From positions 5,890,001 through 5,954,000 of the forward strand of contig JANJGN010000034.1 in assembly GCA_026770705.1 (NCBI GenBank): a stretch of DNA of 64,000 nucleotides. The letters are read 5' to 3'. Positions 95 to 60,433 of the stretch are shown here, piece by piece. The notes under the pieces were generated by a model that saw only the letters and a list, made by a program, of their open reading frames with translations, was not told the origin of the DNA and searched no databases. This stretch comes from Isurus oxyrinchus. Its lineage: Eukaryota. Position numbers and translations under genes: made by a program. How positions within the stretch are numbered: position 1 is the stretch's first letter; the number at the start of each line of letters is the position of its first letter.

Positions 95-400
95 TGTGAC
101 GACGTTGTGGTGTCACAACTTTAGACCAGAAGCTCTGGGTTCAAGTCTTACTTCAGGAATTGATGGCTGTTGAAGCTGCTTTTGTAAGGTGGCCGGCTGT
201 ATTGCTTAGGAACTTGTCAAACCTTCCAATGTGCCTGGCAGCAGGTGCTCAGTTCGGGGGAGATGCTGGACAGCCAGGTTTTAGAAAGCAACGTCAAATG
301 ACTGTCGTACTTTGACAAGCATAATCATGACCACATCCAGTGGAAACGCATGATCACAAACACCGTCTGAATACAAGCTAGCTGAAAACTAGGAATGAAA
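95..400 (+). mobile_element. Decayed tRNA-derived SINE-like element (also ~29675-29980 and ~56900-57210)
   Basis: B-box-like gggttcaagtc at ~137-147 after an A-box-like tgtggtgtca. No cloverleaf. Confidence 0.4.
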
Positions 401-1283: not shown

Positions 1284-1319
1284 AGATTCTAACGTGTCAA
1301 GAGTCTTTAAAGGATTCAG
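1284..1319 (+). CDS. Micro-exon E1 copy 1, 36 nt, EILTCQESLKDS
   Basis: ctcaccattttag|agattct...ggattcag|gtggga. Same peptide in all 3 copies, only synonymous changes. Confidence 0.85.
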
Positions 1320-4300
1320 GTGGGAAACATATTTGGCATTTGTGTAAAATTGCCGCTGAACAAAATATTCCAGCATTTACTAGCCCACACATAGAATACC
1401 GTAATTTTAAATGTAAAGATGTAGATTTTGCCTGCATCATATAATTGTCTAGCAAAGAAAGAGGGCAATCCTCCACCGTGCCTGTAACTGCTATATGAAT
1501 GGGTTTTATCCCTCTCCATCTCTAACCCTCTCATTTTCTATCTCTCTGAATTTATCTGCGTTCCAGAAGTCTTTTTACACAACCTTGCAAATGCTTGTTC
1601 TGCACAATAAGGTGTTGCTCTCCGCCAACCCCTCAGCCCCTCCCTATGCTTTGTCTATAAATAACCTTAAATCGGTGTTTCCTTGTTGCTGGTCGCCTGG
1701 ACGTGGGAACCATTTAGTGTTATTTTATTTCTTAAGCATGATGGTCTGATCATATTGCACGCCATTATCATAGGGTCCATTAACCTTCTTGCCGTGATCA
1801 GAAAAAAATCAGCACCCTTCTGCCGTCCATATAACTTACGCCCCTGGTACTGTTGACTACATCTTCCCTGTGCTCCCAGCACGATTTTCGAATCATTGCA
1901 AAGCGTGGTGCTTCGAATTAGAATGTAATATGCTAAAGTGGTGCATATTAAGCAACAATTGTTGGGAAGCTGCACTGCGTGTCGACGTCTTGGTTAGATC
2001 AACATCTTCAAACGTGTTTTCTACATCAATTATTGATCCCGAATGATGTGTGGCTCTGTTAGCTGAGCTGATTGTCTGCCTGGGCGTGGAATGGACGGCC
2101 ATTGCGATTGGGTCAGTTTCAGGCTACAGTTCAGGATCATTATTTTCCTCAATATGCAGCAGCAGCTACATTATTGTGTTATTGCAGAGTTATGCACGCA
2201 GCAGCATGCTTGCTATAGCAACAGTTAAAAATTGCTATCCACCTGCAATCTACTGTCTTATCAAAAAAAAATGTCATCTGTTTCAATGATTCCACAATCT
2301 TTCTGTTATTGTCATGCCTTGACAGATGGAAAGCTGAAAGGCAAAGAAAAAGGTAGCCAGTTTAAGGATTCGCCGTTTTAAAAAGACAGATATTGACGTG
2401 TTAGGAACATATCTATGCGCCTTTTGTTGCATTGGTTAACTTCTCTCAAATAGCATTTAGCATTATTAATCAGAAGATCGGTTGAATTTGGTAATGGGCT
2501 ACATGTGGAGAAAATCTTTCAGTTTGATTTCACAGACAAAAGTGAGAGCCACTAAGACAGGAGTTTATCATTAATAGAAACTAACGCTCAGGAGGAAAGT
2601 ATTGATTCAGAAAACGGTTGGATTGTGGAATTCGCAGCTCCATGATCCATTCTTATACTGAATTTCTCAGAATGTTTTTTTTTAAGGCTGAGGATACTGA
2701 GATCCCACGAAATTCCTAACAACCTGATTTTCACAGAGTAAATTTCGTGTTGACCCTACGGAAATTTTCGTTCAGCATTCTCAACTCCGGATTAATGGAT
2801 CCTGTGCATTATTAAGCAATTTTACCTCGTGGTTGCAGTCTGGCTTAAAAACTATGACATCCAAAAATGACGATTCCTTCTCTTGAGGACACGTTCGGGT
2901 TTGGGGCCTGACTTCGGAAGGATACATGTTGCTCTCTAAATATCCAGACTGTGTTCCCTCATGTGGTTTGCAGTTGTTTCAGGGGCCATGTGCGATTGAA
3001 ATTGCTCGGCTCATTCTCTGTCATCCAATGAGCTGAATGACGTGAGAGTTTTAAGGAATGCCGTGTAGCAAACGCTGTACAGTTCCTGCACTAAATAACA
3101 AATCAAACTGATAATTCTTAGCAGAATATTAAAGCGGAGTCTCTCAAATCTGCATATACAAGCTATGTAAACAACATCCACACGCACAAAAAACATTTTG
3201 CCTAATTAAACAAAGGTGCTACAAATTACATCGAAACATTTCTAGGTTAACAGAGATTTTAACTTCTCCAACAAAGAAAATACAGGAATGAAACCATGCC
3301 AAACTCTCTTGTAAAACGCAGAAGTTCGTCACCAATAAAATGCAGTTAGTGGCGGAGAGTCAAATAATTGCAGCTGCATTCGTCTATTTAAGCTCAGTCT
3401 TCTACAGCAGTGTCGGTTCCAGACCTGATTGTAAAGAGGATTACTGGGCCAGTTTGATTGCTTTCGGTGAATATCGGGATACAATATGGAACTCTTCTGT
3501 AATCTGGACGGGGAAATATAACTGATAACCTTGACAATTCCATGATCCTTATAAACCAGTTGCTTTCTTTCTGTCTTAGAATTGAATGACATTCAGCAGA
3601 AGTGCAGTGAGTATTCCATGAGCCAGCAGCCCCCGAGGTGTGGATTTCCCGATTGATTAAAACCAGTTCTGCGGAAAGAACTTATCTGTGGACAGAACAT
3701 GTGCCTTGGGGGAGAAAATGTATTAGAGTGATGATATTAAAGCACATCCCCAAGGTATGAGGAGAAAATGTCGGAAAGGAAATTGTGGTTTTCCCTTCTT
3801 GCCTAAAGCTGCGCCGAATGATTTGCCCTCGCAGCTTCAAACTTTTTAGCTATGACTCAGTAGACAGAACTTCCAACTTGTGATCAGAAGGTTGCGAATT
3901 CAAGTCCAGAGTTAGAAGTTGAGCACAGGCACAGATGCTGACACATCGCCAGCAATGTATTGCAGGAAATGTAGCTGTTTAGTCCATAAAACGAGGTGAG
4001 GTTTGCCCTCGAAATTGGATGTAAATGACCCAATGCCACATCTGAAAAAAACAAAGGAAGTTTTCAACTGATATCATGGTGAATACTTACTATTTAATTA
4101 AACCTGTTTAATTAAGTGGTAAGTATTCACCAGGATTTGATGTTTCGCTGGTCTTGGGTTTCCTGGTGAGTCGAGCAGAACAAGTATCTGTGCTGAAACA
4201 GTTCAATCAGAGTGATCATTATATCATCTGCTTTAGGCTGGCAGATCGATCGGATGGACAATTAACATATGACGTCTAATGCAGAAAATCGCGATCACAT

Positions 4301-7300
4301 CATTTTGGTGGGAAGGACGAGCTGAGGCAATGCAAGAGAAAGTGGCAAAATGTAAATGGGTTGCAAGGTATTTACCCCGGATGTCAATGTGCACAAATTG
4401 CTCAGGGTGACAAGGTAGGTTGAATGGGCGTTAAAAAAGCATAACCAGTCCGTAAATTAAATAAAGACGGTCATATAGCACAAAGACATGTAGTTTACAA
4501 TAAATGTATAAAATATTGGGCGGGCCTCAACTAGAGAATTGTTTCCAATTCTGGACAACATTCTCCAGGAAAATGTATAGGCATTATAGAGCGTGCAAAA
4601 GTAAATTTTAAAATTACTTCCAGGGATTAAGAGCTGCCCTTAGGTGGGTAGTTTGGACAGGTGTTCTTCACTTTGGTGATCAGAATATTAAGGAACATTC
4701 TGATGGAGGTGAACATTATCATAAGGATCCAGGAGAGAGTAAACACAGGAGAGTTGCTCCGTTGGCAGGAACGGTCGAAAATCAGTAAAGACCCACTTAA
4801 GGTAATTGACATTATAAACTGTAATGCCATGAGGGAAACATTTTATTTTCCGTTGACTGCTTAGTATTTGGATTACACTGCTAACGGTGTCGAGGAGGCA
4901 TGTTCTATAGATGTTTTCAACAGAGTATTAAGTAAATATATCAGTACGAGAGTTACTTCAGAGGAGTGTTAATTGGAACAGCGGGAAAGTGGCATGAAAT
5001 AAAATTAAAATGATCCGGCACTGGCTCAACGTGTCTCTCTCTTTCTCTCTTTATCTGTCTGGCTCCTTCTCTCCCTCTCTTTCTCTCTCTCGCCCTCTCT
5101 GTATCTTCTACAGCTGATTAGAAAGAAAATAACACAGATATATAGATAGCTANNNNNNNNNNNNNNNNNNNNNNNNNNNNNNNNNNNNNNNNNNNNNNNN
5201 NNNNNNNNNNNNNNNNNNNNNNNNNNNNNNNNNNNNNNNNNNNNNNNNNNNNNNNNNNNNNNNNNNNNNNNNNNNNNNNNNNNNNNNNNNNNNNNNNNNN
5301 NNNNNNNNNNNNNNNNNNNNNNNNNNNNNNNNNNNNNNNNNNNNNNNNNNNNNNNNNNNNNNNNNNNNNNNNNNNNNNNNNNNNNNNNNNNNNNNNNNNN
5401 NNACAGTATTGGATAATTCTTTGACATTTCCGAATGACACAAGGCATGGAGGTGCGGCAAACAAACAGGTTGACAGCAAGCGACTGCAGCAAGAGATAAA
5501 TAATTGAGGAGCATAGGCATCAAGTGGCGGATCGAAAATAATGCACATAAATCTGAAGTGTTGCATTTTGGCATAACCGATAGAGGAGGCCAAATACCCT
5601 TAATGAAACGATTCTTTATTGTGCAACGGAATAGATAAGGAGGAGAGTATTTTTTAAGTTGTATTGAAATATTATAAGTGTAGCTAGCAATTTATTCGAA
5701 TTAATGGGCTTATTATGTGGAGGCATTCAGCACAAAAGTAGAAAATTGTGCATAACCTTTTCAAACGCTGGTTATGCCCCAGTTAACGTTGTGTAATCTG
5801 GCTATCAACACATATTCGGAAGGAGCGACTGATTATTAAGAGGTTGCTGAAGAGAATTGGCTGAATGGTTCCATGAATAATTGAATTTAATGACCAGGGA
5901 ACATTGTTGGACAAACGCGTGTTTTCCTTAGAACACAGAAGGCTGAGAGGAGATCTATAAGTTAATGTCAAGACTAGGTAAGGGAGAAATAGAGATCTCG
6001 TTCTGATACGCTTAAGGTACAGGGATGAGAAGGACTCAATTTTCCGCGCTGTGCACAGTCGATTATAGATTATCAGATCTGTTGGCTTTGCTAGAAAAAG
6101 TTACATGCCATTACGAATGCAACTATATATTTTAAAAAATGGAATGGAAATGGAGGACATTTGTTAATTAGAGCCTAGTTTGTGTAACTCACCATCTAGC
6201 AAGTTGGTGAAGCATTTCTCATTCAGTAATTTCACAATGAATTTAAATTAGCACATTGTCTGATTAAATTGACAGGCAGATGGTGATAGTGTGGGAAAAC
6301 CGGAATGACTGCTTGGATCTGGAGAATGCCGCATTGGTTCTGCCGGCCATAGGGCATCTGTCGCTCCGGGCCAAAGCCACCATGTGCCTCTCACTTGCCA
6401 ACCGAAATGGTCACAGAGCTGTATCAAAATCGCGACAGGAAAATTGGATAAGTGCCAAAACTGGAGAGACAAACCAGGATTGAACTATTCAACGGGTAAA
6501 ACAACGACAAATTCACCCTCTCCACCCTGCTGAAATAGCTTTACTAACAACTGGGAGCTGTTGCCAACAGTGGGAGAGATATCCCACAGGCCAGTCAAAC
6601 AACAGTCATATTTATAATCAAGGATTCAGTGTACCTGTCAAAAGCATGGCAGTCTCATCAAATGACAGACCCAGCCTAGATGACGGCGTTATAGATTCTG
6701 GATGGAAATGCAATGGGGAGCCTAAACACCGACTCCGGACCCCATGAAGTCACATGACTTCAAGCTGAACATGGGCAAGGAATCCTCCATCTGATTATCT
6801 CGTACCAAATTCCACAACCACCCTTGCATCTGATGAATCAGTAGTCTCCCATGTTAAACGTCACTTGGAGAAGCATTGAGGGCGGCAATGGTGGACAATT
6901 CACTTAAATCACCAACACCAAAAATGGCTGTGTAGCACCACTGTAGACTGAGCGAGACGAATGCAAAGAGACATAGTTGCTAGTCTGGGTCTGTGGCTGC
7001 TGGTGAGGGAGCAAACAAGAGGGGGAACCATACCTTTCCTCATCGTCAGGAACCTGCTTGGTGCTGGGGCAGGTGTCCATGAAAGTATCGGTAGGAGTGA
7101 CCACTGCACAGTCATTGTGGAGCAATTGCGGATACCATCCAACATGTGATGCCGCACCACTGAAGTGCCAAAGAGGATAAATTAGGAACAGATCAAGTAT
7201 GTCAATCTGTGGTAGTCACGAGTCTATGCGGTCCATCCACAGAAGCAGAACTATACTCAATCACAATGTTTAACCTCATGGACCGGCAAATCCAACACTC

Positions 7301-10300
7301 ATCCATTACCAGCCAGCTTGGTTATCCAGTCAGTTTCAATGAAGAGTGTAAGGGTACATTGCAGAAGCAGTACCATTCATGCCTAAAAACGAAGTGGCAA
7401 CCGGATGAAGCTACATAGCACATCTACTTGCGTTCCTGACAGCATAAGCAGCACGTGACAGACAGAGCTAAGTCATTGCAGAAACAACAGAGTAGATCTA
7501 AGCTCTGCAGCGCTGTCACGGCCAGTTTTAACTTGCAGTGGGCAATTATATAATTCACCAGAAAGAGATAATGAAATGACTCCATGCTTCTTGATGATAG
7601 AGTGCCAAGCATCGGGGAAAAATATAAGGCTCAAGTATTTACAATACGTGTCGAGTGGGTGACCCATGTCGGCCTCCTCCAGAGATACACGGCATTGCAG
7701 ATCCCAGACTTCAGCTAAGTCGATTCACCCCACGGGTTATCATGAAATGCCTGATGGAACTGGATGCTGCAAAGGCTAGGGGCACTGACAATATTCCGGC
7801 AATAGTATTGAGGATGTGCTCAAGATATTTTTTGTGCCCTTAGCCAGGTTCTTCAAGTAAGGCTACAACACAGGCATCCACCTGGCAATTTAGTCACTCA
7901 GCCAGGTATGTCTTGTGCACACAAAGCAGAGCAAATCCAAACCCACCAATTATCGTCCAATCAGTATACTACCAATCATCATTGAAGTGAGGAAAGGGTC
8001 AGGAACTGCTATTACGCAGCACTTGCTCAGCAATTACCTGCTCATTGCTCAGTTTGGGTTCGGCCAGTGTCCCTCAGTTCCTGACCTCATCACAGACTTG
8101 GTTTCAACATGCACAAAAAAGCTGAACTCCAGTGGTGAGGTGAGAGTGATTGTCCTTGAAATCAAGGCAGAATTTGGCCGATTCTTCCATCAAGGAACCA
8201 TAGCAAGACTGGAGTGTATGGGAATCAGGGGGAGAATTCTGCGTCTGTGGAATTCATTCTTAGAAGGAAGAAAGATTGTTTTCGTTGTTGGAGGTCAATG
8301 ACCAATAGTGAAAGTGCATCATTGCAGGAGTTCCTCAGGGTAGTGTTCTAGGCCCCATCATTCTCAGCTGCTTTTTCAAGGAATTCCTTCCATCATCTGT
8401 TCAGAAGTGGGGGTATTTGCTGATGACCGCACAAATTACAGCACAATTCACGACACCTTAAATAATGAAACAGCCAATTTCTAAATACAGCAACGACAAG
8501 GGCCAAGCAATGACCGCCTTCATCTAGACATTATAAAACCATCACCTTATGACAATCAATGGCAATGGCTACAAGAGCCGATTAGGGGCTGGGAACACTG
8601 CAAATTGCAACTCATCTCCTAAGGCACGAAAGCCTGTCAACAATCTACAAGGCACAGTTCATCTTTGTGATTGAATATTCCTCACTTTCCCGGCTGGGTG
8701 TAGCTCCAGCAACAATCAAGAAACTTGACAACACCCATGGCAAAACAGCCCACTTGATTGCGCCAACATCCACACATGTTCACGCCTTCCACCGGTGACG
8801 GATAGTGGCATCAGTGAATAATATCTGCAAAATGGTCTGCAGGAACTCAACAAGGCTCCTTTGGCAGCACCTTCCAAACCAGCGTTCGCTGCCGTCCGGA
8901 AGCACAAGGGCAGTAGGTCTCTGTGAACAACACGACTTTAAAGTTCCTCGACAAGTCGCTCATCATCCTGATGTGAAATATGTTGTGATTCCTTCACTGT
9001 CGTGGGATCAAAATGATGGAATCCCTCCATAACAGCACCGTGGAAGGAATACCTCAGATGGACTGTAGCACTTCAAGAAAGCAGTTCACCAGCTCATTCT
9101 CAAGGAACGTTAGAGATGGACAGCAAAAGATGTTCTCACCAGTGACCCCCAGGTCACATCAATCAATTAAAAGCGGACAAAATACAGGCTATCCGGTCAC
9201 TGTCAGGCTGATTTGCGAATGCTATAAGGAAATCAGATACTGTTTCTCATGCATAGCAAACATAACCTAAATTCTACATTGCCTGTCTCGTACTTTGGAA
9301 AATTCTGTGTTTGTAAAATGAGCAATATAGTTGCATTTCCTTCTTCCCTTCGTAAGGGGATCTGGATAGGTCATGTAATACTTTCAAGCCAATAGTGCTC
9401 TGAATACATTCTTCTGGAAATTTCCTTTTGTCAGGCTGCTTGGAGGTTCCATGTCTTTTATGAATTCCAAATAGAAAAAAACCCCTCAAGTTTTGCAGTT
9501 ACGTTTTGCAGTTAATATATCTCTGACAGAGTTTAGATGCAATGCGTGCAAAGTGCTACTATTCGTGCAATTTGCTTAAACCAAATATCGATTACATAAT
9601 TCGTTCTTCCCGTTGCTGACATATCGATGTTGCTTCGGTTTTGAACATAATGTGCACACAGAACAAAACAGGGGTCCCAGAGAAGACATGGAAACATGAT
9701 ATTAGAACCCAGCGATATACATTTTCTGAAAGATTGGCGCGGCTATCTACAAAACTGAAGTCTGAATGATGAGCTGACAGGAGTCTTAACAATTATGCAA
9801 GATTTTCTGTTGGAGCCCAGAACTTGGGACTCTAAATGAAATGAAGTCACTAGGCACCTTTGGGAAATTCGGAGTTATATCCACTCACAGGATATTTGTA
9901 ATGCGGTATCCGTACGGCAAGGTGCACTAATTTAATAGCCAACTTTCCTTGTAATGGCAAGTGTACGAGAGAGAAAGAAGTTGAATGACATTCTGATTGG
10001 GTTCGTTGAAGCCGGAGGGGCTTGTGTGTAACATAAGAACAGCTGCAGCGACTGGATGGGGTGAAGGCCTGATTGCATGCTATAGAATGGTTTTAAAGCT
10101 AAGAAACAATGAAGAGGAGATTTCAACAAAACGGGCCAACCATATATCATGAGGCATGACTTACTTGAAGATCCCCTATCAGAAAGACATTTGTCAACAT
10201 CCACTTTAGTAATGATTTAACCAAGTGTGCTAAAAGTCATAACCCTTACTTTGAATTTAATTGCTCAGTTTTAATCTAACAGGCCGTTTAAAATACGTAT

Positions 10301-49300: not shown

Positions 49301-52300
49301 AAAAATATTTGTGGAAACATTGCTCGTTAATGGGGCTTATTCTGAAATTTTGTTTGCTTTCCTCATGGCAAATGGGACGTTTAGACAAAGTTTAATGGGA
49401 AATCAAGTCAAACGTTAAGTACTTTCATGTCACTATCAATGTCAGAGAAAGGCCCAGCGGTGCCAATCAACGTGATGTCCAGTAGAAATCAAATTAACCC
49501 GCTGTGAGATCAGGAATTATCAACTCGTGTATGGTAAGAACAAGTATTAGCGCCAAAGACAGAGATAAAAAAAAAAAAAATCTGAGGTTGCTGGAAAGCC
49601 AAAAAAAAAACGGAATTAAATGGAAAAACTCAGCAGGTCTGGCAGCATCGGCGGAGAAGAAAAGAGTTGACGTCTCGAGTCCTTGTTGAGCGGTCATGAG
49701 GACTCGAAACGTCAACTCTTCTTTTCCGCCAATGCTGCCAGACCTGCTGAGTTTTTCCAGGTAATTCTGTTTTTGTTAAGTATTAGTGTCACTCGGTTTG
49801 TGTGGGAGGTCAGTTTTGAGGATCTATGGAGAGGGCAGTCTGTATATCGATAAGCTTAGATGTATTTGATGGCGGGTGCTACTGATCTAAGTCAGAAATA
49901 AATTATATCTGGTGAGGACGATCGGGCTTTGCTGAAATGAGATATAGGTTTCAACATATGTGTGTGGTCAGCTCTTTCTGGGGTCAAGTTTTATTTTGCT
50001 GACTTTCTTATGAGTTGTGGGCGTGGCTAAAAAGGCCCTCCTTTGTTGCGTATCCTAATTACCTTTGAAATGGCCGTCTTGCAATACATAACCATCGCCA
50101 ATTACAGAAGATATGCTTCCCTGAACTGAAATGGCAGAATTGATTATAAGTCCCATTACGGTGGGGAGCTTTCAATTCCAGATTATTTAACTGAATTTAA
50201 ATTCTACAAATTGCCATGCATGAACCCATGTCCCAGCGGATTGCTCGTAGGAGAATCAGAAATTAGCAGACGGAGTTTCAAAATAATGCATCTTCCAGTT
50301 AAGACTGAGTTTTTCCTTCACTGAGTCGTTAATACTGCAAGTCAATACCGCAGGGGACAGTGCAGGATGTGGCATTGAATATTTTACCACTGCATCTTAA
50401 CCTACTAGGCAAACAGTTCTTATGGGGATGTAAAACCAAAACGTAACTGCTGAGGCTGGGAATCAGATATCAAACAGAAAATGCTTCCAAAACGTAGCCG
50501 GTCTGGCAGCATTTGTGGAGAGAGAAAGGGGGGTTAAATTTTCGAGACCATACGGCTCCTGTTCACAGCTGGTTATGGAGCTAATTCAGGGAAGTGGATT
50601 TAAGGAACTATCAGTTTAGTTATATTCTTGTAGAATGGAGGGGAGGTTAGAGGGGCCAAATGGCCTAAATCTGCCAAATTTCCTCATGTTTTTAAGTTGT
50701 TAAGGGCCGACATCAATATTCGTCCTTTCTCAAAAATGGACATAGCCAAAGTCTGGTGCAGCTCCAATGGACCGAGAATTATGAATAAAAACAAAAAAAT
50801 TGTGGATGCTGGAAATCCTTAACAAAAACAGAATTACCTGGAAAAACTCAGCAGGTCCGGCAGCATCAGCAGAGGAGAAAAGAGTTGACGTTTCGAGTCC
50901 TCATTACCCTTCGACAGAACTTGAGTGAATCGAAGAAAGGGGTAAAATATAAGTTGGTTTAAGGTGTGTGTGTGGGGGGGGGGGGGGGTGCAGTTTGGGT
51001 GTGGGGAGAGAAGTGGAGGGGGTAGGTGTCGTTGTAGGTTGCTTGATTGTCCTACAACCACACCAACCCCCTCCACTTCTCACCCTCAAACCAACCCCCC
51101 CCCCCCCCACACACACACACACACACAAACACACCTTAAACCGCTTTATATTTCACCCCTTTCTTGGATTCACTCAAGTTCTGTCGAAGGGTCATGAGGA
51201 CTCGAAACTTCAACTCTTTTCTTCTCCGCCAATGCTGCCAAACCTGCTGAGTATTTCCAGGTTATTCTGTTTTTGTTTTGACAATTATGAATACCTAGTT
51301 GTAATGGCAAGAATCTCAGAGTTTTACGCGCTTATCCAGGCTGCTGAAAACAGAGTTTTCTTGACGGGAAAAAAGCACAGTAAATGAAGGGTAAAGACGT
51401 TAAAGTTTATTTTGTTAGGATATAAATAACAGGAACGACCAGTCAATGACAAACAGTAAAAGGAAAAGAGAGTGGTAAGCTTTGCTCTGGGATGCCTGTT
51501 ACCGAATTGCAGATCACTTTTTTATGCTCAGTGACATTGCACATCCTATAACTTTACTATTGCTTATATTTCCTTTACTGATTCACAGAAAATGTAAAGA
51601 AAGGTATGAATACGTACATTACAGAAATTCTACTCTAAAGGAAGATAAATATGTTGCCCAAAAAATTCATCCCTGGTGGAATCGGCCCAATCTCCCGTCG
51701 AGTATCTTGCCTAATGTCGAATATATACTTATTTCCCTTTTTCCACGACCCTCTACGACATTTTCGCTCCCCAGCTGTGTAACATGCCACAGCTCAAAAA
51801 TTAAATTTGATACAACTAATTTGCTTCCTTAATTTCGGATTTAGTGTTTTCCCAGTCCCGACCTCTAAACGTTTAACACATTCCCTAAAAACTGTGCCTC
51901 ATAGTGGTAAGCCTTGATACCTTTAATAATATCTCTCAACCTCTTCCTTGTGGTTATGCTACTATGTGTTCCATACTAATGTATGTTTCTGCGTTCTTCG
52001 TCGTTGTCTGTTTAGTAAAAGTATATTGTCCGCTTCAACCAAATCCGAGGAAGTCTCATATCACATGAAGGATCCCAGCAGACTGTGGAGTTGAGTGAAC
52101 ATGAGCCAGGATGTGACCTCTTCCAAAAGCGTAACTTTACAATAGAACCTTGAAGGATGATGAAACACACACCTAATAGACTCAAAGATGAATGTTTTTT
52201 CTCTCCGCCTTGCAGAGCTAAGCACCTGCCAAGATACCGTAAAAGATTTAGGTGAGCCAATCAGTTTTGATGCCTGCTGAATTTCCCGGCCGTTCTCTTT

Positions 52301-55300
52301 ACTCTTAAATCAAGCAAAGCTCCAAGTGTTTCTAAAGCACAACGGAGAAAAAAACGATTCTGGAGCATTAATGCCGTTTGTTTTAAAGATGTTGAACTTT
52401 AAAGGAATGACAGACTAGTTCCGCAGAGGGAGCTGAACTGTCAATCAAAGTGTTTTCGTGCAATGCTCGGTCAGAATTTTGCCAAGTGACTTTATGGATT
52501 CTTCACTGTTCAGAATGATTCACGTAGATTATATCATGAAACAAATATGCCCTGTGTTGTATCGCCAGTTGCTGGCATTCAACTGACAGACTTATGTGGG
52601 GTCATGTGTGTATTCAGTTGCACTGACTAGAATGCAATTAAATATTTGGGGTGGGTATATATTCTTCCCTCTTTATGAAATCGCACATTTTGCCTGGCTA
52701 TCCAAAATTGAAATTCATCGTGTAGAGCTTGATTAATGTGAATGGTTTTCCCATATGCTACCTAATCAGCACTCACCATCACATTTTGCCAATTTTAATT
52801 GCTGTTGACTTCAAGGTAAAAAAAAAAAGACCTGGACCTTTTGCAAGGAAAGGGCGATCAACATAACGATTACAAGACCTTAGGAAGTTGGCGTAATTTA
52901 TGTTATCTCCATGCTCCATGACGTGCATTTCCCCCCGATAGCGCCACTGCGAGTTAAAGAGGAAAACTTCACTATTCATTCTTGTTTGCACAATAGAAAA
53001 GGTAGCAAGTTGCGAGCTAGCAGTGGATAAATGGCTGTTGTAACCATCGCATGAGCTGTTCCAAACAATTTTCACGGTGTTCCACGTTCTCATGGAGAGT
53101 TATGTTTGCCCTGCACTGTCGGCGATATGCAGAAGAGCTTGACTTTCAGTGAATACTTCTCCGCAGTAGATCATGCATTCGTTCATTTTATTATTTATTT
53201 CTGATTTGTTTCACAGCTAAATTAAAAAAAGGTAAGTGGAAATATGTGCAAGCACCTGACAGTCTAAGAGGGTGAAAAGAAAAATGAGGAAAGCTGTGTT
53301 CGCAGTGATTATTGTTTGCAATTTAAAGTAACTTTTAAATTGTCATTACTATATCTAAATACCTCTGTTCCTTGCTCTTCCATATAGCCTTGAGAATCCT
53401 CTGGCCTTACAACTGGTTGCAAGTTTGGTGTTCCCACCACGCTGGCCCCTTTCTGATCGTGGTGTTCCATTACCTTACTAATGGCGTTTTATGACTTCTG
53501 CAATTTGTCCGAAGGCTCCAAAGCATGTTTGCTAAACCTTGCGCCTCAAACTGTCCTTCCTCTTTTAACATTCACATATTTCCTGGGCAGTTTCCGAAGT
53601 CCAACCCTCGTCATCACCCGGATTCTGGCCAATAATTAAAGTTTTGCTCAGAACGTGGTGAAATGCAGTGAGTTTCCTTACGCCCTGTGGCACTTCGGTT
53701 ATCGAGAAGGTCTGCTAGGAAACTTAGAAATACTGAGCAGACAATGTCCTAAATACATTTCCTCAGAACAAACAAGGGAATACGTGGCATCTTGAACAAC
53801 TTAATTTCTTTTCTGGCAAATGAAGGCTGCAACAGAAACAAAGCTCCAAACGTTTTAGTTTTCTGCCGCTGGACCGAGGTGTCGTTCTCTAAAGACAGGT
53901 GTGAAAGATGCTGTGCAATGGTTTGTCCATCCTAAAATTTTGCCCTCATGGGCATCTTTCTTTCCAAGCACATCTACAATGCGATCATGTTCTCATCGAA
54001 TGGAGTAGGGAACATTGTTGTGTTGTGTCAAAAGGATCAATTGAAATATGCTTGCAATGCATTTGGTCAATGGAAAAAGTGAGCATTCGAAAGGTTGCAA
54101 CAACAAAACTGACAGCAATTTCATGATCTGTTATTTTTGCCTGATTCCCCTCATACTCTAATGGGCTGCTAGATGGAAAACCTACAGGAGACACTTCTAG
54201 GCACTTGGGTCATACCGTGTAAATTGGCTGCAATAGAAATTGCATATTAGTGGGTTGGCAGACAGGCAGACACTGTCAGCTGTCAGGTATCAGACTCCCA
54301 ATGCAGGTATTGTTCTCCAAGATTAGAGGGGATAGACGCACCAGAGGAAGGCAGAGGACGCTCTTAAGGGGTGTGCTGAAAAGCAACATGGAGAAAGTGA
54401 ACTATTCTCATCGACATCTCGGTGAACACCATTTAGAACTTAAGCCAAATGACACCAGCCCCTATAGGAACCACAACAGCACTTTGAAAACGAACAACTA
54501 TAAAAATAGGAGGGACCAAAGGGAAACAGCAAGACTCTAATTAATGTTACATGACCTGACACCCAACAAGGCATTGGTGCATGAAGTCTGCTTGTCCCGC
54601 ATCTGCCTCATCAGCCATCTCAGGCTCATGGAAGACAATTGTGCTCGCTAGTGAGTCGTAGCCAGTAATAACATTATCTGCAAGCAATTAATCACGTGTC
54701 ACAATGTGGCCTCATGTTGCACCACCTCCAGGTTTGTCGAGAACTGTTTGTGTGGAAACAATTTTGGTGTTTTCCTGCATTAAGTCAACACATACATGCT
54801 AATTGCTCTTTCCTGACAACAGTCTACATTCAATGTCTACCAGCAAAGTTTCTGCCGACGAATCTGATGAACCAGTTGCTCGCAGGACGACAACTTGCCG
54901 ATTCTTACAGTACAGTTAAGCAGGTGGGAGTAAACCATGGTTCCCGAAGAGAAGTTAAACATTTTTAACATAATCAAAGAAAATAGATTGTTCTAGACCG
55001 GTTGCAACACAGAAAGAGGCCATTGGGATCTTCGCATTGGAGGCGGATCTCTTCGTTATTATCTAGGCTGTTACCATGATTCAGACCTTCAACTGCAACG
55101 CATGCAACTTCATTGCCAAATAATTGCCGAGCTCCCTATTAAAAGCCACGATTGTCCCTTTGCCGAGCTCATTCTTAGACACTGCATTTAAGAAACTAAT
55201 GATGCTCTGCACATTTAATTTTTCCCTATTTCCCCTTTGGTTCTCTTTCAGTTGACGTTACATCAACGTCTTCCAGGTTCTTGACCATTCCAGATGGGCA

Positions 55301-58300
55301 CAGTCTATGCGTGCCAAAAATGTCCAGGCCCCATCGTGAATTTCAGAAGCCCCATCAAATCACCTCTCAATCATTTTGTATTTTTGTACAATGGTTTAAA
55401 ATTGTCCAATCCTTCTTTCAAGAAGAAACAATCATCCCTGGAAACATTCCCATGAATACACTCTCTACGCCCTCTAATGTCTTCACTTCTCCCTTAACTA
55501 GGATGTCTAAAATATGATACAATTCCCTAGTTGAAGTCGAAATAATGGTAAAACAGGTTTACCATCACTTATTATTTTTTGGCTGCCTATTCCTCTATTT
55601 ATAAAGCCAAGGATTTCTTCTTGTTAAGTGGCAGCATTTTGAATCTGCCCTTCGTCTTGCAACCATTTGTCCTCTTATACTCCCAAAGCCCCATCAGCAG
55701 CTTCAATCCCCTTTGGAATGCTACCACACGTTGTTCATTACCTCCTCCTACAAAAACGAATTAATTCATGCCTCTCTCTATTAATTTCACCTCCAATAGT
55801 TCCTCCTATTCCACCCTTCGATCTGCGTTTGTTTGACGTTTTTCACCATTGTCCTTGCAATTCATAGTCCTGTGAAACCTGAAAAGTGAAAATCTTAAAG
55901 TGTTGCCCTGGACAGTCATATTTAGGTCCTTCATGCATACCATGTAGACAGATTGGAAGGGGGAAACAGCATAGTTTTTGTTGGCACTTCAGTGTGGATC
56001 ATCCATTTTATGAATTACAGAACTAAGCAACTGTCAACAAGCTGTAAAAGACCTAGGTGAGCAAAACATTCCCGGTGTTGCTTTCGACTACATGCCTTAT
56101 TATTTTGAACCATTAATCAAATACGTTTATTTCATTAAAAAAGTGGTTATCAATTCAGTCACCCGTTGTTTGGCGATAGGCCCACATTCATTTCTTTTGA
56201 TTTCAATAAAAGAAAATTCTGGGCAGAAAGCAAAACAGACTGACTATCCGATCGTGGGCAGGATGAATTTCCGAGGCTACGCGTGCGTGATTATTGTTGT
56301 ATTTTGTCTCAACTCTTGCTCAGTCCTGCACACTAATGGAATGCTGAATATTGTTAACTTTATCGATTTGTTACAACGTTTGAAAAGTATTCTAACCAAT
56401 AACAAAACTCCCCTACTCCTGAAAAATGTGTTTAATCTTAGATTTTTTGATTTGTTTATCATTTAATCCCTAACAGAAGAGAAACTCAACGCAAAAGATA
56501 AAGGTACCTGAACGGACATATTTTTCCTCAAAAAGCCAGAGATTGTCAATGGCTGATTGCTTCTTTACATGATTTGTTTTGTTTGCTTAGAGATGTTTTA
56601 TGTTTGTTTTCCTACTAATCAGATTGCTAGTATGTACCCTAACGGTTGGCAGCAGAAGAATCCTCTACAAGGGTTCCATAGTTTCGACTTATGAGAGCAC
56701 AATTTCAGATGCTGTGTCACACATAGTGGTAAGACAGTAAATAACGTGAACTAATTAACTGAAAAAGGAATTCACTTATGCTCCTTAAACAAGGTAGTGG
56801 TAACAACAAAGTGTTCACTAGCACAGTGAGTTTGGAATTAAAACGCATGTGGTGGTTAGGAATTACAGAATTGCTGATAAATTTTATGGAGGAGTTCTTG
56901 TGACGCCATTGTGGTGTCATAAATTACGCCCAGAAGATCCGCGTTCAAGTCTCACTTCAGGACTTCCTGGCTGTTGAAGCTGTTTTCGTAAGGTGGCCGG
57001 CTGTATTGCTTACCAACTTGTAAAACGTTCAAATGCGCCAGGCACCAGGTGCTAAGAATGGGACAGAATGCAGGAAGCCAGCCAGAATGCAGGAAGAAAT
57101 GTCAAATGGCAGTCGTATTTTGCCAAGCATAATCATGGCCATATCCAGTGGAAATCCATGTTCACCGACACCCCATGAATGCAAGGGGTGACTGAAAACT
57201 AGGAATGAAATAATGTATGTGGTAAGTTGTTCTGGTGGAGAATAGGCTTAAGCATGGGGCACTTGATTGGATGGACAGATATTTTCCTCTAATTTATATT
57301 GATTGGTCTACCCTCTCGCTATCGAAATCCATAGACTTTTTTTTTTCCGAAATGCATGACATTCCAAAATCGCATGGAAAAAAGACTGAGTGCCCTCTTT
57401 CTTTGATCGGCGATGTGCTAAACCAGGGTGAAGCACCGAGTGTCTAGTTAAATAATGTAATTGAACAATAGTTAAAGGGAAGAACTTGGCAAATTCCCGC
57501 AGAAAAACAAAATCTGCAAAAACATTTGATTCCACGCTTCTGCAAGTTAATTTGCAAACAGAAGCTCGGTGCATCTTACTAATAGAGACTTACCGCGCCG
57601 TTAAAGATGGAAGTATGCGATGTCTTATTTTTTAAGCATGTATAATATGCAAGTGAAATATCCTAAAACATGCCATGCAACTATTGGATGAACATCTCGG
57701 GGATATTGAATGTCACGTCTCTGTATGATATTGCACAATCTGTACTCAAGTAAGGTTACCAATGCCAGCCTTGCGCTTCCTGCTACTGCAACCCCGGCAT
57801 TCTGTTCTTCCTTAAAATGCATTAAGAAATGGTGGCACAAATTAGACCTCGTATTTTTTGAATATGACACAAGGATTAGCTGTGGGAAATATTCTGCCGT
57901 TATTTATGGTTAGGATAAGTAGGTGCCTCAGGAGGAAGCGAGCCCGAGTACATATGGGTGATATAATATGCAACATGTCGAAGTATGGAGCGGGTGGAAG
58001 GACATAATCCAGTTTTTCGAATACACTGACCTGTACTGAAATTCTGCAAAGTAAGTCGGGAAGGTTGGTCGGAGGGAGATGGGGAAACGTGCTGAAATTA
58101 AAGTAATGGTGAAACTCTCACATCTCACCAATTTAGAGATCCTAACGTGCCAAGAGTCTTTAAAGGATTCAGGTGGGAAATATATTTGCTTTTTTGTGTA
58201 AAATAGCCACTGCACAAAATATTCCAGCAATTCCTAATCCACACGTGGAATACAGAAATACCGATCAGTAATTTTAAATGTACAGATGTAGATTTTGCCT

Positions 58301-60433
58301 GCATCATATAATTGCCCAGCATAGCAAGAGGGCAATCCTCTACCTTGCCTATATCCCACTCCATATCTCTCTCCCTCTCTCATTAGCTGCGTTCTAGAAA
58401 ACTTTTCACACAACCTTCCAAATGCTTGTTCTGATCAATAACGTGTTGCTCCCCCTCAACCCCCTGCGCCCCACCCTAAGGTTTGTCTATGAATAACCTA
58501 AAATCTGTGTTTCTTTGTTGCTGGTCTTCCTGGACGCGGAAACCATTTATTGTTCTTTGATTTCTTAAGAATGATGGTCTCATCATATTGGGCGTAATTA
58601 TCATAGAGTCCATTAATCATCTTGCCCTGTTCAGAAAAATCTCACCTCCCTTCTGCTGTGTATATACCTTACGTCCAGGGTACTTTCGATTAAATCTTCC
58701 CTGTGCTCCCAACACGATTTGCGAAGCATTGCAAAGCGTGGTGCATCGCAATTAAATACAATATCCTAAAGTGGCGCATATTAAACAATAATGATTGAGA
58801 AGCTGCACTAAGTGTCGACGTGTTGGTTAGAAGCACATCTTCAGCAGTGAGTTCTCAACGAATTACTGATTCCGACAAATGCGTGGTTCTTTTACCTGAG
58901 CTTGTCCTCTGGCTGGGAGGGAATGGACGGCCATTGCGATAATTTCAGTTTCACGCTACTGTCCAGGATCATTATATGCCACAATATTTAGCATCATATA
59001 CATTAGTGTGTTGTGTGCAGAGTTATGCACGCAGCAGCATGCTTGATATAGCAACAGTTAAAATTCTCATCCACCTGCAAACGTGTGCCTTATCATATAA
59101 AACGTCAACTGTTTCAATGATTCCACAATCTTCTTGTTAACGTCATGCCTTGACAGAAACAAAGCTGAAAGGCAGAGAGAAAGGTAGACAGTTTAAGGAT
59201 TCGCTATTTTAAAAAGACAGATATTAACTTATTAGGGAAATAACTATGCACCTTTGTTTGCTGATTAACTTCTCTCAAATAGCATTTAGCTTTATTAATC
59301 GGAAGATTGGTTGAATTTGTTAACGGGCTTTTTGTGGAGAAAATCTTTCAGCTAGTGGTCGTGGCCATAATTGAGAGCCAGCAAGATAGGAGTTTAACAT
59401 TCATAAAAACTAACAGTCAGGAAAAAAAAACATTGCTCCAGAAAACTTTTAGAATGTGGAATTAGCTGCTACATGATCTTTTCGTATACGGAATTTCACT
59501 GCATTATTTAAAGCTGACAACACCGAGATTCCACGAATGTTCAATCGACCTGATGATCATGGAGTGTATATCGTGTTGTCCCCTCGAAAATTTTAGTTCA
59601 GCATGGTCAACTCCAGATAAATGGCTCCTGTGCATTGTTAAGCAAGTTTACGTCGTGCTTGCAGACTCGCTGAAAGACTAGTACTTCCAAACAATGGCGA
59701 TGCATTCCCTTGAGGATATGTTCGGGCTTTGGGTCCTTATTTCAGATGGATACATATTGATCTCTGAATATCCAGACTGTGTTCCCTCTGGTGCTTTGCA
59801 GTCATTAAAGAGGCCATGTGTGATGGAAATCGCTCGATGAATTCTCTGTCAGTCAACGAGCTGAAAGGCGTATGAGATTTAAGAAATGCTGCGTAGCAAA
59901 CGCTGTCCAGTCCATGCACGAAATAACAAATCAAACTGATCATTCTTCAAAGAATATTAAAGCGGAGTCTCACAAAGCTGCACATAGAAGCTATGTAAAC
60001 AACATCTACATGCACAAAAACATTATGCCTAATTTAACAGAGGCGCTACGAATTACATCGAAACATTTCTAGCTTAGCACGGATTTTAAGTTCTCCAGCA
60101 AAGAAAATTCACGAATGAAACCATGCCAATGTCTCTTGTAAAACGCAGAAGTTCGTCATGAATAAAATGCAGTTAGTGGAAGAGAGTGAAATAATTCCAG
60201 TTGCATTCCCCTATTCAATCTCAGTCTCTAACAGCAGTGTAGGTTACAGACACGATTGTTGACCGGATTGTTGGGCCAGTTTGATTGCTGTCTGGGAATG
60301 TAGGGATATAAAATGGAGCACTTCTGTAATCTGGACGAGGAAAGGTAACTGCTAACCTTGACAATGCCATGATCCTTATAAACCAGTTGTTTTCTTTCTG
60401 TCTTAGAATTGAATGACATTCAGCAGAAGTGCA
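1284..60433 (+). CDS. Internal part of a multi-micro-exon gene for a long Cys-containing coiled-coil protein (31 exons, 870 nt, ~290 aa in window; both ends outside)
   Basis: 31 AG..GT exons of 15/27/36 nt, all phase 1/1, join without stops into a sequence with 3-4 hydrophobic periodicity. Copy 1 vs copy 2 exons differ at 29/390 nt with no indels or stops, while introns carry many indels. Confidence 0.85.
2326..2352 (+). CDS. Micro-exon E2 copy 1, 27 nt, DGKLKGKEK
   Basis: gccttgacag|atggaaag...gaaaaag|gtagcc. Splice sites kept in 3 copies. Confidence 0.8.
3580..3606 (+). CDS. Micro-exon E3 copy 1, 27 nt, ELNDIQQKC
   Basis: ttctttctgtcttag|aattg...agtgca|gtgagt. 27/27 identical in all 3 copies. 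Confidence 0.9.
3848..4110 (+). mobile_element. Decayed tRNA-headed SINE with a Deu-domain-like body (also ~33418-33680 and ~60676-60950)
   Basis: A-box-like tgactcagtag and B-box-like gaattcaagtcc, then gttgagcac...gctgacac...taaaacgagg...tgccctc...gatgtaaatgaccc. Resembles DeuSINE cores as I remember them. Confidence 0.55.
4230..5035 (+). mobile_element. Decayed CR1-type LINE, RT C-terminal/3' fragment (also ~33780-34500 and ~61050-61860)
   Basis: Degenerate motifs: NAEK.....HFGGK at 4277-4315, RPQLENCFQFW at ~4520-4555, a CR1-like 3' end. Stops and frameshifts. Confidence 0.7.
5153..5402. other. N run (250 nt) beside a TC/GATA microsatellite; homologous N runs at 34606-34809 and 62012-62169
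   Basis: Directly visible; flanks read gatatatagatagcta and tagatagata. Confidence 0.95.
5405..6010 (+). mobile_element. Decayed CR1-type LINE RT fragment (also ~34810-35190 and ~62170-62760)
   Basis: cgactgcagcaagagata...aagtgg...aatgcacataaatctgaagtgttgcattttggc resembles LQ.DI...KW...NA.K.EVLHFG; ctgagaggagatcta reads LRGDL. Confidence 0.7.
6500..9172 (+). mobile_element. Decayed non-LTR retrotransposon (CR1/L2-group APE+RT ORF2 with 3' tail); only the 3' end remains in copy 2 (~35190-35620); 5' part in copy 3 (~63260-64000)
   Basis: ORF 7915-8301 has NYRPISIL, QFGF and VIVLEIKAEF. GVPQGSVLGP starts at 8327 and FADD is at 8416-8427. Many stops and frameshifts. Confidence 0.85.
10762..10788 (+). 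CDS. Micro-exon E4 copy 1, 27 nt, KGDLWDKDS
   Basis: attctctcttgcag|aaggag...gattcag|gtaaac. Identical in copy 2. Confidence 0.88.
11391..11426 (+). CDS. Micro-exon E5 copy 1, 36 nt, EINDLQTKLQKC
   Basis: cacattttcag|aaataa...aatgcg|gtgagt. 36/36 identical in copy 2. Confidence 0.9.
11580..12840 (-). mobile_element. Highly decayed L2-like LINE fragment (also ~38040-39290)
   Basis: Minus-strand H.LDL...R motif (ORFs 12165-12413 and 38618-38866), similar to the end of an APE endonuclease domain. Otherwise weak. Confidence 0.4.
13267..13293 (+). CDS. Micro-exon E6 copy 1, 27 nt, DENLKAVVK
   Basis: tttcacccttcaacag|acgag...gtaaaag|gtactg. Copy 2 differs by D>E plus one synonymous change. Confidence 0.8.
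15380..16320 (-). mobile_element. CR1-type LINE 3' fragment (also ~41850-42770)
   Basis: ORF 15502-15726, DRMDVERMFPLVGESRTSGYHLKIR...FFSQ...LWNCLPQSAVEAGSL, is a typical CR1 ORF2 C-terminus. Confidence 0.85.
17600..20310 (+). mobile_element. Long, highly decayed CR1-type LINE (also ~44060-46710)
   Basis: IPQESLLALLLLNIRFNGFDYGVRNSISKFGASSKMG (ORF 19609-19896) is a degenerate VPQGSVLGP..F...INDLD.G....ISKFADDTK.G. CR1-like 3' tail at ~20150-20310. Confidence 0.65.
20721..20747 (+). CDS. Micro-exon E7 copy 1, 27 nt, ELSDLQQKC
   Basis: ttttctttttccttag|agctc...agtgca|gtaagt. Paralogous to E3. Confidence 0.88.
22219..22245 (+). CDS. Micro-exon E8 copy 1, 27 nt, KADLDQKDE
   Basis: gttactcttgcag|aagctg...gatgagg|gtaaag. 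Paralogous to E4. Confidence 0.85.
22931..22957 (+). CDS. Micro-exon E9 copy 1, 27 nt, EIGKKIGEL (probably ancestrally 36 nt from 22922, EMQEIGKKIGEL)
   Basis: Strong donor ttag|gtgagt. The pyrimidine tract ends in tacaa rather than tacag; the next AG (gcaag) is 9 nt downstream and in frame. Confidence 0.65.
   Translation, partial: KSARKLES
23895..24005 (+). mobile_element. Old Penelope-like terminal-repeat fragment shared by the copies (also ~50452-50570)
   Basis: aaacagaaaatgctggcaaaac...ggtctggcagcatctgcggaga is similar to the younger inserts at 49556 and 50788. Confidence 0.55.
24521..24535 (+). CDS. Micro-exon E10 copy 1, 15 nt, ENVKK
   Basis: tttcctttaccgattcacag|aaaatgtaaagaagg|gtatgt. 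Copy 2 differs by one synonymous change. Confidence 0.78.
25138..25173 (+). CDS. Micro-exon E11 copy 1, 36 nt, ELSTCQDTVKDV
   Basis: tttctctccgccttgcag|agctaag...gatgtag|gtgagt. Copy 2 has 2 synonymous changes plus V>L. Confidence 0.9.
26135..26149 (+). CDS. Micro-exon E12 copy 1, 15 nt, DQLKK
   Basis: gatttgtttcacag|atcaattaaaaaaag|gtaagt (consensus donor). Confidence 0.82.
26600..27450 (+). mobile_element. Decayed RTE-clade LINE 3' fragment (also ~53700-54650, which keeps ~120 bp more, including an SRI.LISHLR Zn-knuckle-like end)
   Basis: GH......IRLP.Q.....G.R..G.QR.....VLK.NM.K (ORF 54250-54540) matches the RTE ORF C-terminal pattern. Confidence 0.65.
27780..28520 (-). mobile_element. 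Decayed CR1-type LINE 3' end (also ~54990-55770)
   Basis: Begins catagatcggttacagcagagagagaggccatcgggc, the reverse complement of a CR1-type tail, followed by antisense RT C-terminal-like sequence. Confidence 0.5.
28787..28822 (+). CDS. Micro-exon E13 copy 1, 36 nt, ELSNCQQAGKDL
   Basis: ttttgaattacag|agctaag...gacctag|gtgagt. Paralogous to E11 and E1. Confidence 0.88.
29252..29278 (+). CDS. Micro-exon E14 copy 1, 27 nt, EEKLNTKEK
   Basis: taatcccaaacag|aagaaa...gagaaag|gtacct. Paralogous to E2 and E6. Confidence 0.8.
30877..30912 (+). CDS. Micro-exon E1 copy 2, EILTCQESLKDS
   Basis: ctcacctttttag|agattc...ttcag|gtggga. One synonymous change vs copy 1. Confidence 0.85.
31904..31930 (+). 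CDS. Micro-exon E2 copy 2, ETKLKGKEK
   Basis: gccttgacag|aaacaaag...gaaaaag|gtaggc. Confidence 0.8.
33149..33175 (+). CDS. Micro-exon E3 copy 2, ELNDIQQKC
   Basis: tttctgtcttag|aattg...gtgca|gtgagt. Confidence 0.9.
37241..37267 (+). CDS. Micro-exon E4 copy 2, KGDLWDKDS
   Basis: atctcccttgcag|aaggag...gattcag|gtaaac. Confidence 0.88.
37839..37874 (+). CDS. Micro-exon E5 copy 2, EINDLQTKLQKC
   Basis: cacattttcag|aaataa...tgcg|gtgagt. Confidence 0.9.
39711..39737 (+). CDS. Micro-exon E6 copy 2, EENLKAVVK
   Basis: tttcacccttcaacag|aagag...gtaaaag|gtactg. Confidence 0.8.
47107..47133 (+). CDS. Micro-exon E7 copy 2, ELHNIQEKC
   Basis: tttacttttcctcag|agctcc...agtgca|gtaagt. Confidence 0.85.
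48574..48600 (+). CDS. Micro-exon E8 copy 2, KNDLDQKDE
   Basis: gtaactcttgcag|aaaatg...gatgagg|gtaaag. Confidence 0.85.
49259..49285 (+). CDS. Micro-exon E9 copy 2, EFGKKVGEL (36-nt form would start at 49250)
   Basis: ttattttacaaaaatgcaag|aattcgg...attag|gtgagt. Same tacaa as copy 1. Confidence 0.65.
   Translation, partial: NSARKLEN
49556..49777. mobile_element. Copy-2-specific Penelope-like inverted-repeat insertion with TSD
   Basis: Arms 49621-49682 and 49700-49759 are near-perfect reverse complements. Flanked by aagtattagcgcca (49542) and aagtattagtgtca (49778). Empty site at ~23215 in copy 1. Confidence 0.8.
50788..51279. mobile_element. Copy-2-specific Penelope-like inverted-repeat insertion (~490 bp) with TSD and hammerhead-like motifs
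   Basis: Arms ~50821-51040 and ~51050-51279. Flanked by gagaattatgaata (50774) and gacaattatgaata (51280). Empty site gagaattttgaata at ~24213 in copy 1. Confidence 0.85.
51589..51603 (+). CDS. Micro-exon E10 copy 2, ENVKK
   Basis: tttactgattcacag|aaaatgtaaagaaag|gtatga. Confidence 0.78.
52216..52251 (+). CDS. Micro-exon E11 copy 2, ELSTCQDTVKDL
   Basis: ctctccgccttgcag|agctaag...gatttag|gtgagc. Confidence 0.9.
53217..53231 (+). CDS. Micro-exon E12 copy 2, AKLKK
   Basis: gatttgtttcacag|ctaaattaaaaaaag|gtaagt. Confidence 0.82.
56021..56056 (+). CDS. Micro-exon E13 copy 2, ELSNCQQAVKDL
   Basis: tttatgaattacag|aactaag...gacctag|gtgagc. Confidence 0.88.
56477..56503 (+). CDS. Micro-exon E14 copy 2, EEKLNAKDK
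   Basis: taatccctaacag|aagaga...gataaag|gtacct. Confidence 0.8.
58137..58172 (+). CDS. Micro-exon E1 copy 3, EILTCQESLKDS
   Basis: ctcaccaatttag|agatcc...ttcag|gtggga. Two synonymous changes vs copy 1. Confidence 0.85.
59157..59183 (+). CDS. Micro-exon E2 copy 3, ETKLKGREK
   Basis: gccttgacag|aaacaaag...gagaaag|gtagac. Confidence 0.8.
60407..60433 (+). CDS. Micro-exon E3 copy 3, ELNDIQQKC
   Basis: ttctttctgtcttag|aattg...gtgca|gtgagt. Confidence 0.9.

Follow-up and report, generated by a model that had tools for sequence, protein, structure and literature searches.

The 64,000-nt window analysed here (the whole stretch of DNA presented, G000:C34:5,890,001–5,954,000, from a genome of 4.98 Gb) is filled by 2.2 copies of a unit of 27–29.6 kb, with approximately 80% identity between copies. 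Within window positions 1..64000 (+ strand), boundaries fall near 23,970 and 51,040. The copies belong to a tandem array of 10 units of 25.6–29.7 kb each (approximately 28 kb), which spans C34:5,884,262–6,163,694. Each unit carries 14 micro-exons that together make up 390 nt, and homology mapping placed 31 of these exons within the window. All 31 are in phase 1, have AG..GT ends and a length of 15, 27 or 36 nt, and lie exactly where an earlier note on this DNA had put them.

As bounded in the genome, the duplicated unit begins with E10. In window coordinates, with successive copies in order and all on the + strand, the exons are E10 (15 nt; 24521..24535 and 51589..51603), E11 (36 nt; 25138..25173 and 52216..52251), E12 (15 nt; 26135..26149 and 53217..53231), E13 (36 nt; 28787..28822 and 56021..56056), E14 (27 nt; 29252..29278 and 56477..56503), E1 (36 nt, phase 1; 1284..1319 in unit 1, 30877..30912 and 58137..58172), E2 (27 nt; 2326..2352, 31904..31930 and 59157..59183), E3 (27 nt; 3580..3606, 33149..33175 and 60407..60433), E4 (27 nt; 10762..10788 and 37241..37267), E5 (36 nt; 11391..11426 and 37839..37874), E6 (27 nt; 13267..13293 and 39711..39737), E7 (27 nt; 20721..20747 and 47107..47133), E8 (27 nt; 22219..22245 and 48574..48600) and E9 (27 nt; 22931..22957 and 49259..49285).

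A simple splice-site scan of the window for candidates of 15, 27 or 36 nt with a score of at least 7 returned 18 (+) versus 1 (−), indicating that the exons are not a product of chance. Both splice dinucleotides, which the earlier note had found intact between its two copies, are kept in all 140 exon copies of the array (E9 taken as 27 nt). Its 14-exon, 130-aa unit without a stop likewise holds for 10 of 10 joined units. Approximately 3 kb of unit 1 (window 5787–8741) is absent from unit 2 and some other units, and none of the size indels among the ten units removes any of the 14 exons. An assembly artefact was ruled out as the cause of the array: the units are 15.5–17.6% divergent and each has its own indels.

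A 133-aa unit of exactly 19 heptads had also been proposed, by way of a 36-nt ‘long E9’ (22922–22957). That segment is preceded by CAA, not CAG, in all ten units, and this form therefore has no canonical acceptor. At 22920–22930 and 49248–49258 the pyrimidine tract ends in CAA (AA at 22920–22921 in unit 1, 9 nt upstream of E9, and likewise in copy 2); the next AG, a weak canonical one in unit 1, lies 9 nt on, as it does in every unit. The canonical unit is thus predicted to have 130 aa with one stutter. The extra letters of E9 are not conserved like coding sequence (pairwise identity 0.79 over 7 nt), the pyrimidine tract that precedes them has been kept (0.93), and E9 is the least conserved exon of the unit (identity 0.857). 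It is likely that an old AG was lost before the amplification and that the next AG, 9 nt on, came into use, which would have introduced one stutter per unit. The site is either such a shifted acceptor or a rare GT–AA intron; E9 may also be skipped.

The exons have evolved more slowly than their surroundings. Copies 1 and 2 in the window differ at 29 of 390 exon nucleotides, as the earlier note had counted, with 10 synonymous differences in place of its 9. Its impression that the flanks are roughly twice as diverged and rich in indels was accurate: the p-distance is 0.090 for exons and 0.170 for introns, and 126 of 126 exon comparisons are free of indels, compared with 78% for random windows. 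When the exons were set against random windows, as that note had suggested, exon identity over the 10 units was 0.911 versus 0.818 ± 0.017 (0 of 10,000 sets as high). Distinct changes comprise 46 synonymous on 70 sites and 113 non-synonymous on 317 sites (P = 6 × 10−4), and synonymous sites change at near the intron rate (0.65 versus 0.73). The dN/dS of the array exons is approximately 0.54, which indicates moderate constraint only. The ten units are almost equidistant (p 0.155–0.176 over 17,090 columns) and their tree is star-like; the homologous unit in the neighbouring paralog is equally distant (0.159–0.174 over 4,802 columns). From these distances we infer that the units arose in a single burst, roughly when the paralogs separated, and have been little homogenised since.

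Hydrophobic residues recur in the joined array with a period of 3.514 (130/37), and two heptad columns hold most of its Leu, Ile and Val. The hydrophobic positions listed in the earlier note were matched with an offset of one. Local heptad power was 8.0 for the native exon order; it fell to 2.9 ± 0.4 when exons were shuffled (none of 200 orders reached the native value) and to 1.5 when residues were shuffled. The native exon order keeps the heptad register. The 58 cysteines in the 1,299 aa of the array, counted on the 133-aa form, fall in three columns of 29, 20 and 9, which would correspond to heptad positions d, g and a, respectively. Cysteine accounts for 3.7% of the whole joined rod. N-glycosylation sequons (8 in 3,581 aa) show no enrichment, a point against the interpretation preferred below. 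Together, the kept register and dN/dS support the earlier interpretation of a selected, micro-exon-encoded, Cys-studded coiled coil, as predicted from sequence.

Similar exons continue to both sides of the array, which is the middle of a far larger micro-exon run, in what is likely a single gene that extends past both ends of the window. We scanned 1.457 Mb between C34 4,859,000 and 6,396,400, with 80 kb mid-rod, at 5,530,001–5,600,000 and 5,610,001–5,620,000, outside the scan. Candidate lengths peaked at 15, 21, 27 and 36 nt on the + strand only; at a score of at least 7, there were 113 (+) versus 4 (−) candidates of 27 nt and 106 (+) versus 4 (−) of 36 nt. Among 362 + strand candidates, a stop occurred in phase 1 in 14, compared with 229 in phase 0 and 178 in phase 2, and 52 − strand candidates had 14, 14 and 15 stops across the three phases. 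An exon classifier, trained on the + strand that it scored, such that borderline calls may be inflated, kept 353 exons, with 4 minus-strand false calls at score 8 and 1 at score 10. Combined with the homology-mapped array, this gave 371 phase-1 exons over C34 4.87–6.40 Mb (179 of 27 nt, 135 of 36 nt, 33 of 21 nt and 24 of 15 nt). The classifier recovered 122 of the 140 known array exons, and correction for this recovery and for the unscanned 80 kb brings the estimate to approximately 420. Joined, the 371 exons encode 3,581 aa without a stop, a real test for the array only, as the classifier drops stop-bearing candidates. Four presumed-RNA contig sets gave repeat matches only, with the SPRY exon described below uncovered and no junctions, and are neutral on expression.

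The run leads to an open exon of 173 codons that encodes a B30.2/SPRY domain (C34:6,395,818–6,396,336, + strand), 442 kb beyond the window. It is preceded by exons of 21 and 27 nt, and an AATAAA lies approximately 660 nt past the stop. A 92%-identical paralog of this exon matches Pfam SPRY (E = 3.5 × 10−12), and the best PDB matches of the terminal exon itself are BTN3A B30.2 domains (BTN3A1, E = 5 × 10−20). With SPRY as the terminal exon, we dropped tetherin/PLVAP, CD23, C-type-lectin necks and scavenger receptors as relatives. Between the window and the SPRY exon lie 176 classified exons, never more than 13,031 bp apart, in sequence that has no N outside the window; this continuity, together with a paralog that repeats the exon order, argues for one gene. 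In the 5′ half of the run, the scanned sequence contains gaps of 20–52 kb without a classified exon, and these, with the 80 kb unscanned, make an internal gene boundary possible. No second SPRY exon or other tested domain exon was found inside the 1.457 Mb. The window would account for approximately 4% of a locus of approximately 1.55 Mb that ends in the B30.2/SPRY exon.

Related SPRY exons occur on the same contig at 2,708,644 (−), 3,474,122 (−), 4,816,515 (+), 6,395,818 (+; that of the window’s gene) and 7,496,441 (+; the end of a paralog). This paralog (6.43–7.50 Mb) is an approximately 77–83% copy of the window’s gene with the exon order and the SPRY exon repeated, and 30 of the 31 sampled paralog exons with a match of at least 80% lie in the block that corresponds. 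The two genes have the 5′ region in common, and the paralog is without an internal 240 kb (C34:4,850,373–5,091,193 versus 6,455,835). The missing 240 kb includes a 111-nt exon and the first 27- and 36-nt exons, and the paralog goes straight into the 21-nt block. We dropped the idea that this paralog (gene 3) is 5′-truncated, as it shares the 5′ region of gene 2 and the missing part is internal. The probed part of the unit had one match in this paralog, most of which was covered only by sampling, and the tenfold array therefore appears to be specific to the window’s gene. Separately, part of the unit (E13/E1) is duplicated alone in the neighbouring paralog at C34:7,050,291–7,059,365, with a spacing of approximately 7 kb, an independent and smaller event. 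On another contig, C21, two SPRY exons (89,722,233 and 91,348,263; 35–38%, E = 1.5 × 10−34 and 2.5 × 10−31) are closer to this family than are approximately 140 other SPRY matches listed, most of which lie in a dense C21 cluster at 83–118 Mb.

At the 5′ end, secure homology begins with the 111-nt phase-1 exon at 4,859,457. It is conserved in the upstream paralog (4,005,537), and its first residues form a short hydrophobic run. Exons of 81 nt (4,834,522) and 30 nt (4,846,528) are conserved in genes 2 and 3 and not clearly in gene 1. A stretch upstream of the first rod exons is conserved in three paralogs (C34:4,846,250–4,846,680, 6,452,284–6,452,704 and approximately 3,997,300–3,997,700); it has no shared donor and is possibly a promoter or an untranslated exon. 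We identified no start or signal exon, and no ATG frame in the conserved 5′ stretches was convincing. Two signal-exon candidates were rejected: 4,865,441 lies at the margin of a high-copy repeat, and 4,840,063 belongs to the remains of a LINE, with neither its ATG nor its donor kept in the paralog.

The earlier note had advised inspecting the flanks for domain exons, Ig-V and B30.2 among them. A tblastn search with 163 proteins, 16 of them with an Ig-like motif by regex, found no Ig exon in 4.817–6.396 Mb (less the 80 kb mid-rod) or in the 5′ regions; as a control, it detected an IgV exon at 7,605,101. Neither a RING nor a B-box exon was matched in 4.817–6.396 Mb or the 5′ regions by 46 RING-motif queries (tblastn), nor was one found by motif in the open reading frames of 6.396–6.462 Mb. 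The B7/butyrophilin-like IgV exon at C34:7,605,035 (+; Pfam V-set E = 9 × 10−5, below the cut-off) lies approximately 108 kb past the last SPRY exon, and cannot be the first exon of the + strand genes because it is downstream of them. Nearby, at C34:7,600,084 (−), an exon with a weak Claudin_2 match (E = 8 × 10−4), which we take to resemble CLDND1, may serve as a synteny marker for the cluster.

A library-wide protein search for relatives gave 1,769 matches with E ≤ 0.001; among the 150 listed, identity to single-domain top matches was 36–55%. Ten clusters were looked up; those that are close and have a single SPRY domain hold models from chimaera, skate, ray and shark with automatic TRIM, A33 or butyrophilin names. 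In the 10 database matches scanned, SPRY/PRY was the sole Pfam family (a weak PRY in one). Six coiled-coil + SPRY models resemble the window’s gene in having a charged helical N-terminal part and a SPRY domain on the same branch: skate XP_055510696 (‘TRIM69-like’), catshark XP_038668997 and XP_038672308 (‘TRIM39-like’), chimaera XP_042191567 (‘TRIM58’), Narcine XP_069775385 (‘A33-like’) and Hemiscyllium XP_060706632 (‘BTN3A1-like’). They differ from it in being only 221–451 aa long, and the relatives as a whole are 129–460 aa versus the 3,600 aa or more predicted here. Searches for long relatives among proteins of 304–2000 and 518–2000 aa, which were word-limited and had a ceiling below the predicted length, found none; an additional word-limited ‘near’ protein search found one. 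Between RefSeq isoforms of the relatives, internal stretches of 6 or 9 aa are present or absent, and a further 7 aa are missing as a block from an older chimaera model; these differences between models would fit micro-exon skipping. A signal-like hydrophobic N terminus is present in two of nine relatives (skate XP_055510696 and Hemiscyllium XP_060706632) and absent from the other seven, some of which may be 5′-incomplete. A single-sequence AlphaFold prediction of the skate relative, with a helical N terminus and a beta C terminus, was poor (mean pLDDT 45.2, pTM 0.24) and is not evidence.

In a SPRY tree of 52 rows, 12 family rows, including three paralogs from this locus, lie on one side of a 100/100 branch, and 29 RING-motif and 11 Ig-motif rows lie on the other; the tree was midpoint-rooted and its bootstrap had not settled. 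Motif, length (<800 aa) and domain cover decided which rows entered, labels were assigned by regex, and family rows were chosen by score. Judged from these protein models, the family has members in chimaera, skate, ray and sharks and is chondrichthyan-wide, such that the rod protein is not lineage-specific in the narrow sense suggested earlier, and is so only at the level of cartilaginous fishes. These relatives also suggest that the window itself comes from a cartilaginous fish. Our searches of the open literature yielded no paper on a chondrichthyan coiled-coil + SPRY family.

We have little doubt that this is a real gene. The interpretation that we prefer, and consider probable, is that the window lies in a tenfold-duplicated block inside one gene of approximately 1.55 Mb, which would encode a Cys-studded coiled coil of 3,600–4,100 residues followed by an immune-type B30.2/SPRY domain, likely secreted or at the cell surface. 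Most exons are probably included in some message. Export of the product is favoured by a narrower measure; it is suggested by the cysteine density, the two signal-like relatives and the hydrophobic opening of the 111-nt exon. Each exon would add 5, 7, 9 or 12 residues with the frame unchanged, and a 12- and a 9-residue exon together would make three heptads. The rod would have been lengthened by duplication of a genomic block, the ten units contributing approximately 1,300 aa or 190 nm, and, to go by the isoform models of the relatives, would probably be shortened by exon skipping. The chains probably assemble in parallel into an oligomer with Leu at positions a and d, and the cysteines could cross-link them if the protein is extracellular. 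A coiled coil rises 0.1485 nm per residue, and 3,600–4,100 aa would therefore reach 530–610 nm, with approximately 190 nm from the array alone. The product would most likely be a secreted or surface-anchored tether of 0.5–0.6 µm with a B30.2 ligand-binding head that serves for recognition. We advance only tentatively the fullest version of this interpretation, in which one transcript of approximately 420 exons over 1.55 Mb encodes a secreted, disulfide-zipped rod of approximately 450 kDa and 0.6 µm with a B30.2 head, the prototype of an unrecognised chondrichthyan family of extracellular B30.2 tethers, their reach adjusted by the duplication of blocks and the skipping of micro-exons. The confidences that we attach to this and to the alternatives below overlap and do not sum to one.

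The locus could instead be a cassette library, from which subsets of exons per mRNA, or several starts, yield many shorter rod–B30.2 proteins and no full-length product. We regard this as possible, if doubtful. All exons are phase 1-1 and hence skippable, the relatives’ models are short with 6- and 9-aa cassette differences, and the 6.43–7.50 Mb paralog is without 240 kb of 5′ exons, yet has intact exons in the sampled parts. Against such a library, the register is far better in native than in random order, which speaks for exons being included in sequence, none of the 140 array copies is broken, and the 1.457 Mb yielded no second SPRY or other tested domain exon. Somewhat less probable is a cytoplasmic product of the same giant gene, that is, a butyrophilin/BG tail that lost its Ig and membrane part, comparable to chicken zipper protein or enterophilin, and that would act as a cytoskeletal or signalling scaffold. 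Heptads followed by B30.2 correspond to the cytoplasmic half of butyrophilins and, in passages of PMC4046983, the soluble zipper protein corresponds to the BG tail; the best solved-structure matches are BTN3A B30.2 domains (E = 5 × 10−20), seven of nine relatives have no signal-like start, and no signal exon was found in the 5′ regions. The cysteine density and heptad register speak against it, as do the signal-like starts of XP_055510696 and XP_060706632, the hydrophobic residues at the start of the 111-nt exon, and the occurrence of the PRY-SPRY protein ohanin in venom, a secretion (as described in part of PMC12730704). It is very unlikely that the array is a dead or dying duplication that still shows the exon signal of its ancestor. 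In its favour, dN/dS is only 0.54, and the change at the E9 acceptor seems to predate the amplification. Against it, approximately 9% divergence per lineage predicts a lost splice dinucleotide in about one-third of the copies (an estimated 0.91^4 = 0.69 intact) versus 0 of 140 observed, with 0 indels in 126 comparisons, 0 stops and an open SPRY exon.

If the preferred single gene is spliced as one unit, it would equal or exceed titin, and no vertebrate gene would have more exons; almost all of its exons are of 15–36 nt, and it would provide a natural test of the splicing of hundreds of micro-exons over 1.5 Mb. If this is true, the misnamed shark, ray and chimaera models would be explained as pieces, or as short representatives, of a separate B30.2 family, with a bearing on the origin of butyrophilin-type tails.

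Schistosome micro-exon genes encode short secreted proteins from symmetric micro-exons only; the likeness is in exon design alone, as the window’s gene ends in a long domain exon. In TRIM proteins, too, a coiled coil is followed by PRY-SPRY, and the 27-nt exon before the B30.2 exon may have its parallel in TRIM/BTN genes; unlike TRIM genes, this locus showed no RING or B-box exon in our searches, and its rod is far longer than the TRIM coiled coil. Enterophilin-1, a cytoplasmic mammalian protein, has an extended leucine zipper (approximately 30 heptads) and B30.2 and is not known to carry Ig or RING. On this architecture alone, its long zipper + B30.2 is similar to the product predicted here; an SNX1/EGFR role is described for it. 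Titin, an unrelated protein that shares only the hundreds of exons per gene, has 363 exons, described in passages as the largest number (PMC3575840; count also PMC11931755), compared with 371 found and approximately 420 estimated micro-exons here, if in one transcript. Ohanin/vespryn, described in part of PMC12730704 as a PRY-SPRY protein in venom, is short and has a signal peptide going by its literature description, and the product of the window’s gene is wholly different in length.

Further parallels are with butyrophilins and chicken BG. Butyrophilins combine IgV/IgC domains, a membrane span, few heptads and a B30.2 domain that is cytoplasmic (passages of PMC4046983 and PMC12841164). The window’s gene shares with them heptad micro-exons followed by a terminal B30.2 exon, with that of BTN3A1 as the best PDB match, and differs in that the Ig search found no exon here and that its SPRY domain lies on a separate branch in the sampled tree. 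Chicken BG genes, in passages of PMC4046983, encode an IgV domain, a membrane span and a tail of 13–36 exons of 21 or 24 nt; these passages describe no B30.2. As in BG and zipper protein, tiny heptad exons spell a long coiled coil, with a 21-nt block and a tandem cluster of changing exon numbers. The BG/butyrophilin parallel drawn in the earlier note was useful, and its contrast with the 21-nt exons of BG is weakened by the 33 exons of 21 nt in the run. Measured against the BG combination of IgV, membrane span and 21-nt tail exons, the locus has 21-nt exons as 33 of 371, no IgV exon found and a terminal SPRY exon; there are approximately ten times more exons here, mostly of 27 and 36 nt. The window’s gene is built like a butyrophilin/BG tail, with no Ig or RING exon found in the regions searched: the heptad-exon design of BG (13–36 exons), scaled tenfold and capped with B30.2, its register selected after a burst of ten 28-kb duplications. 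The feature is real and unusual, a novel form of a known design.
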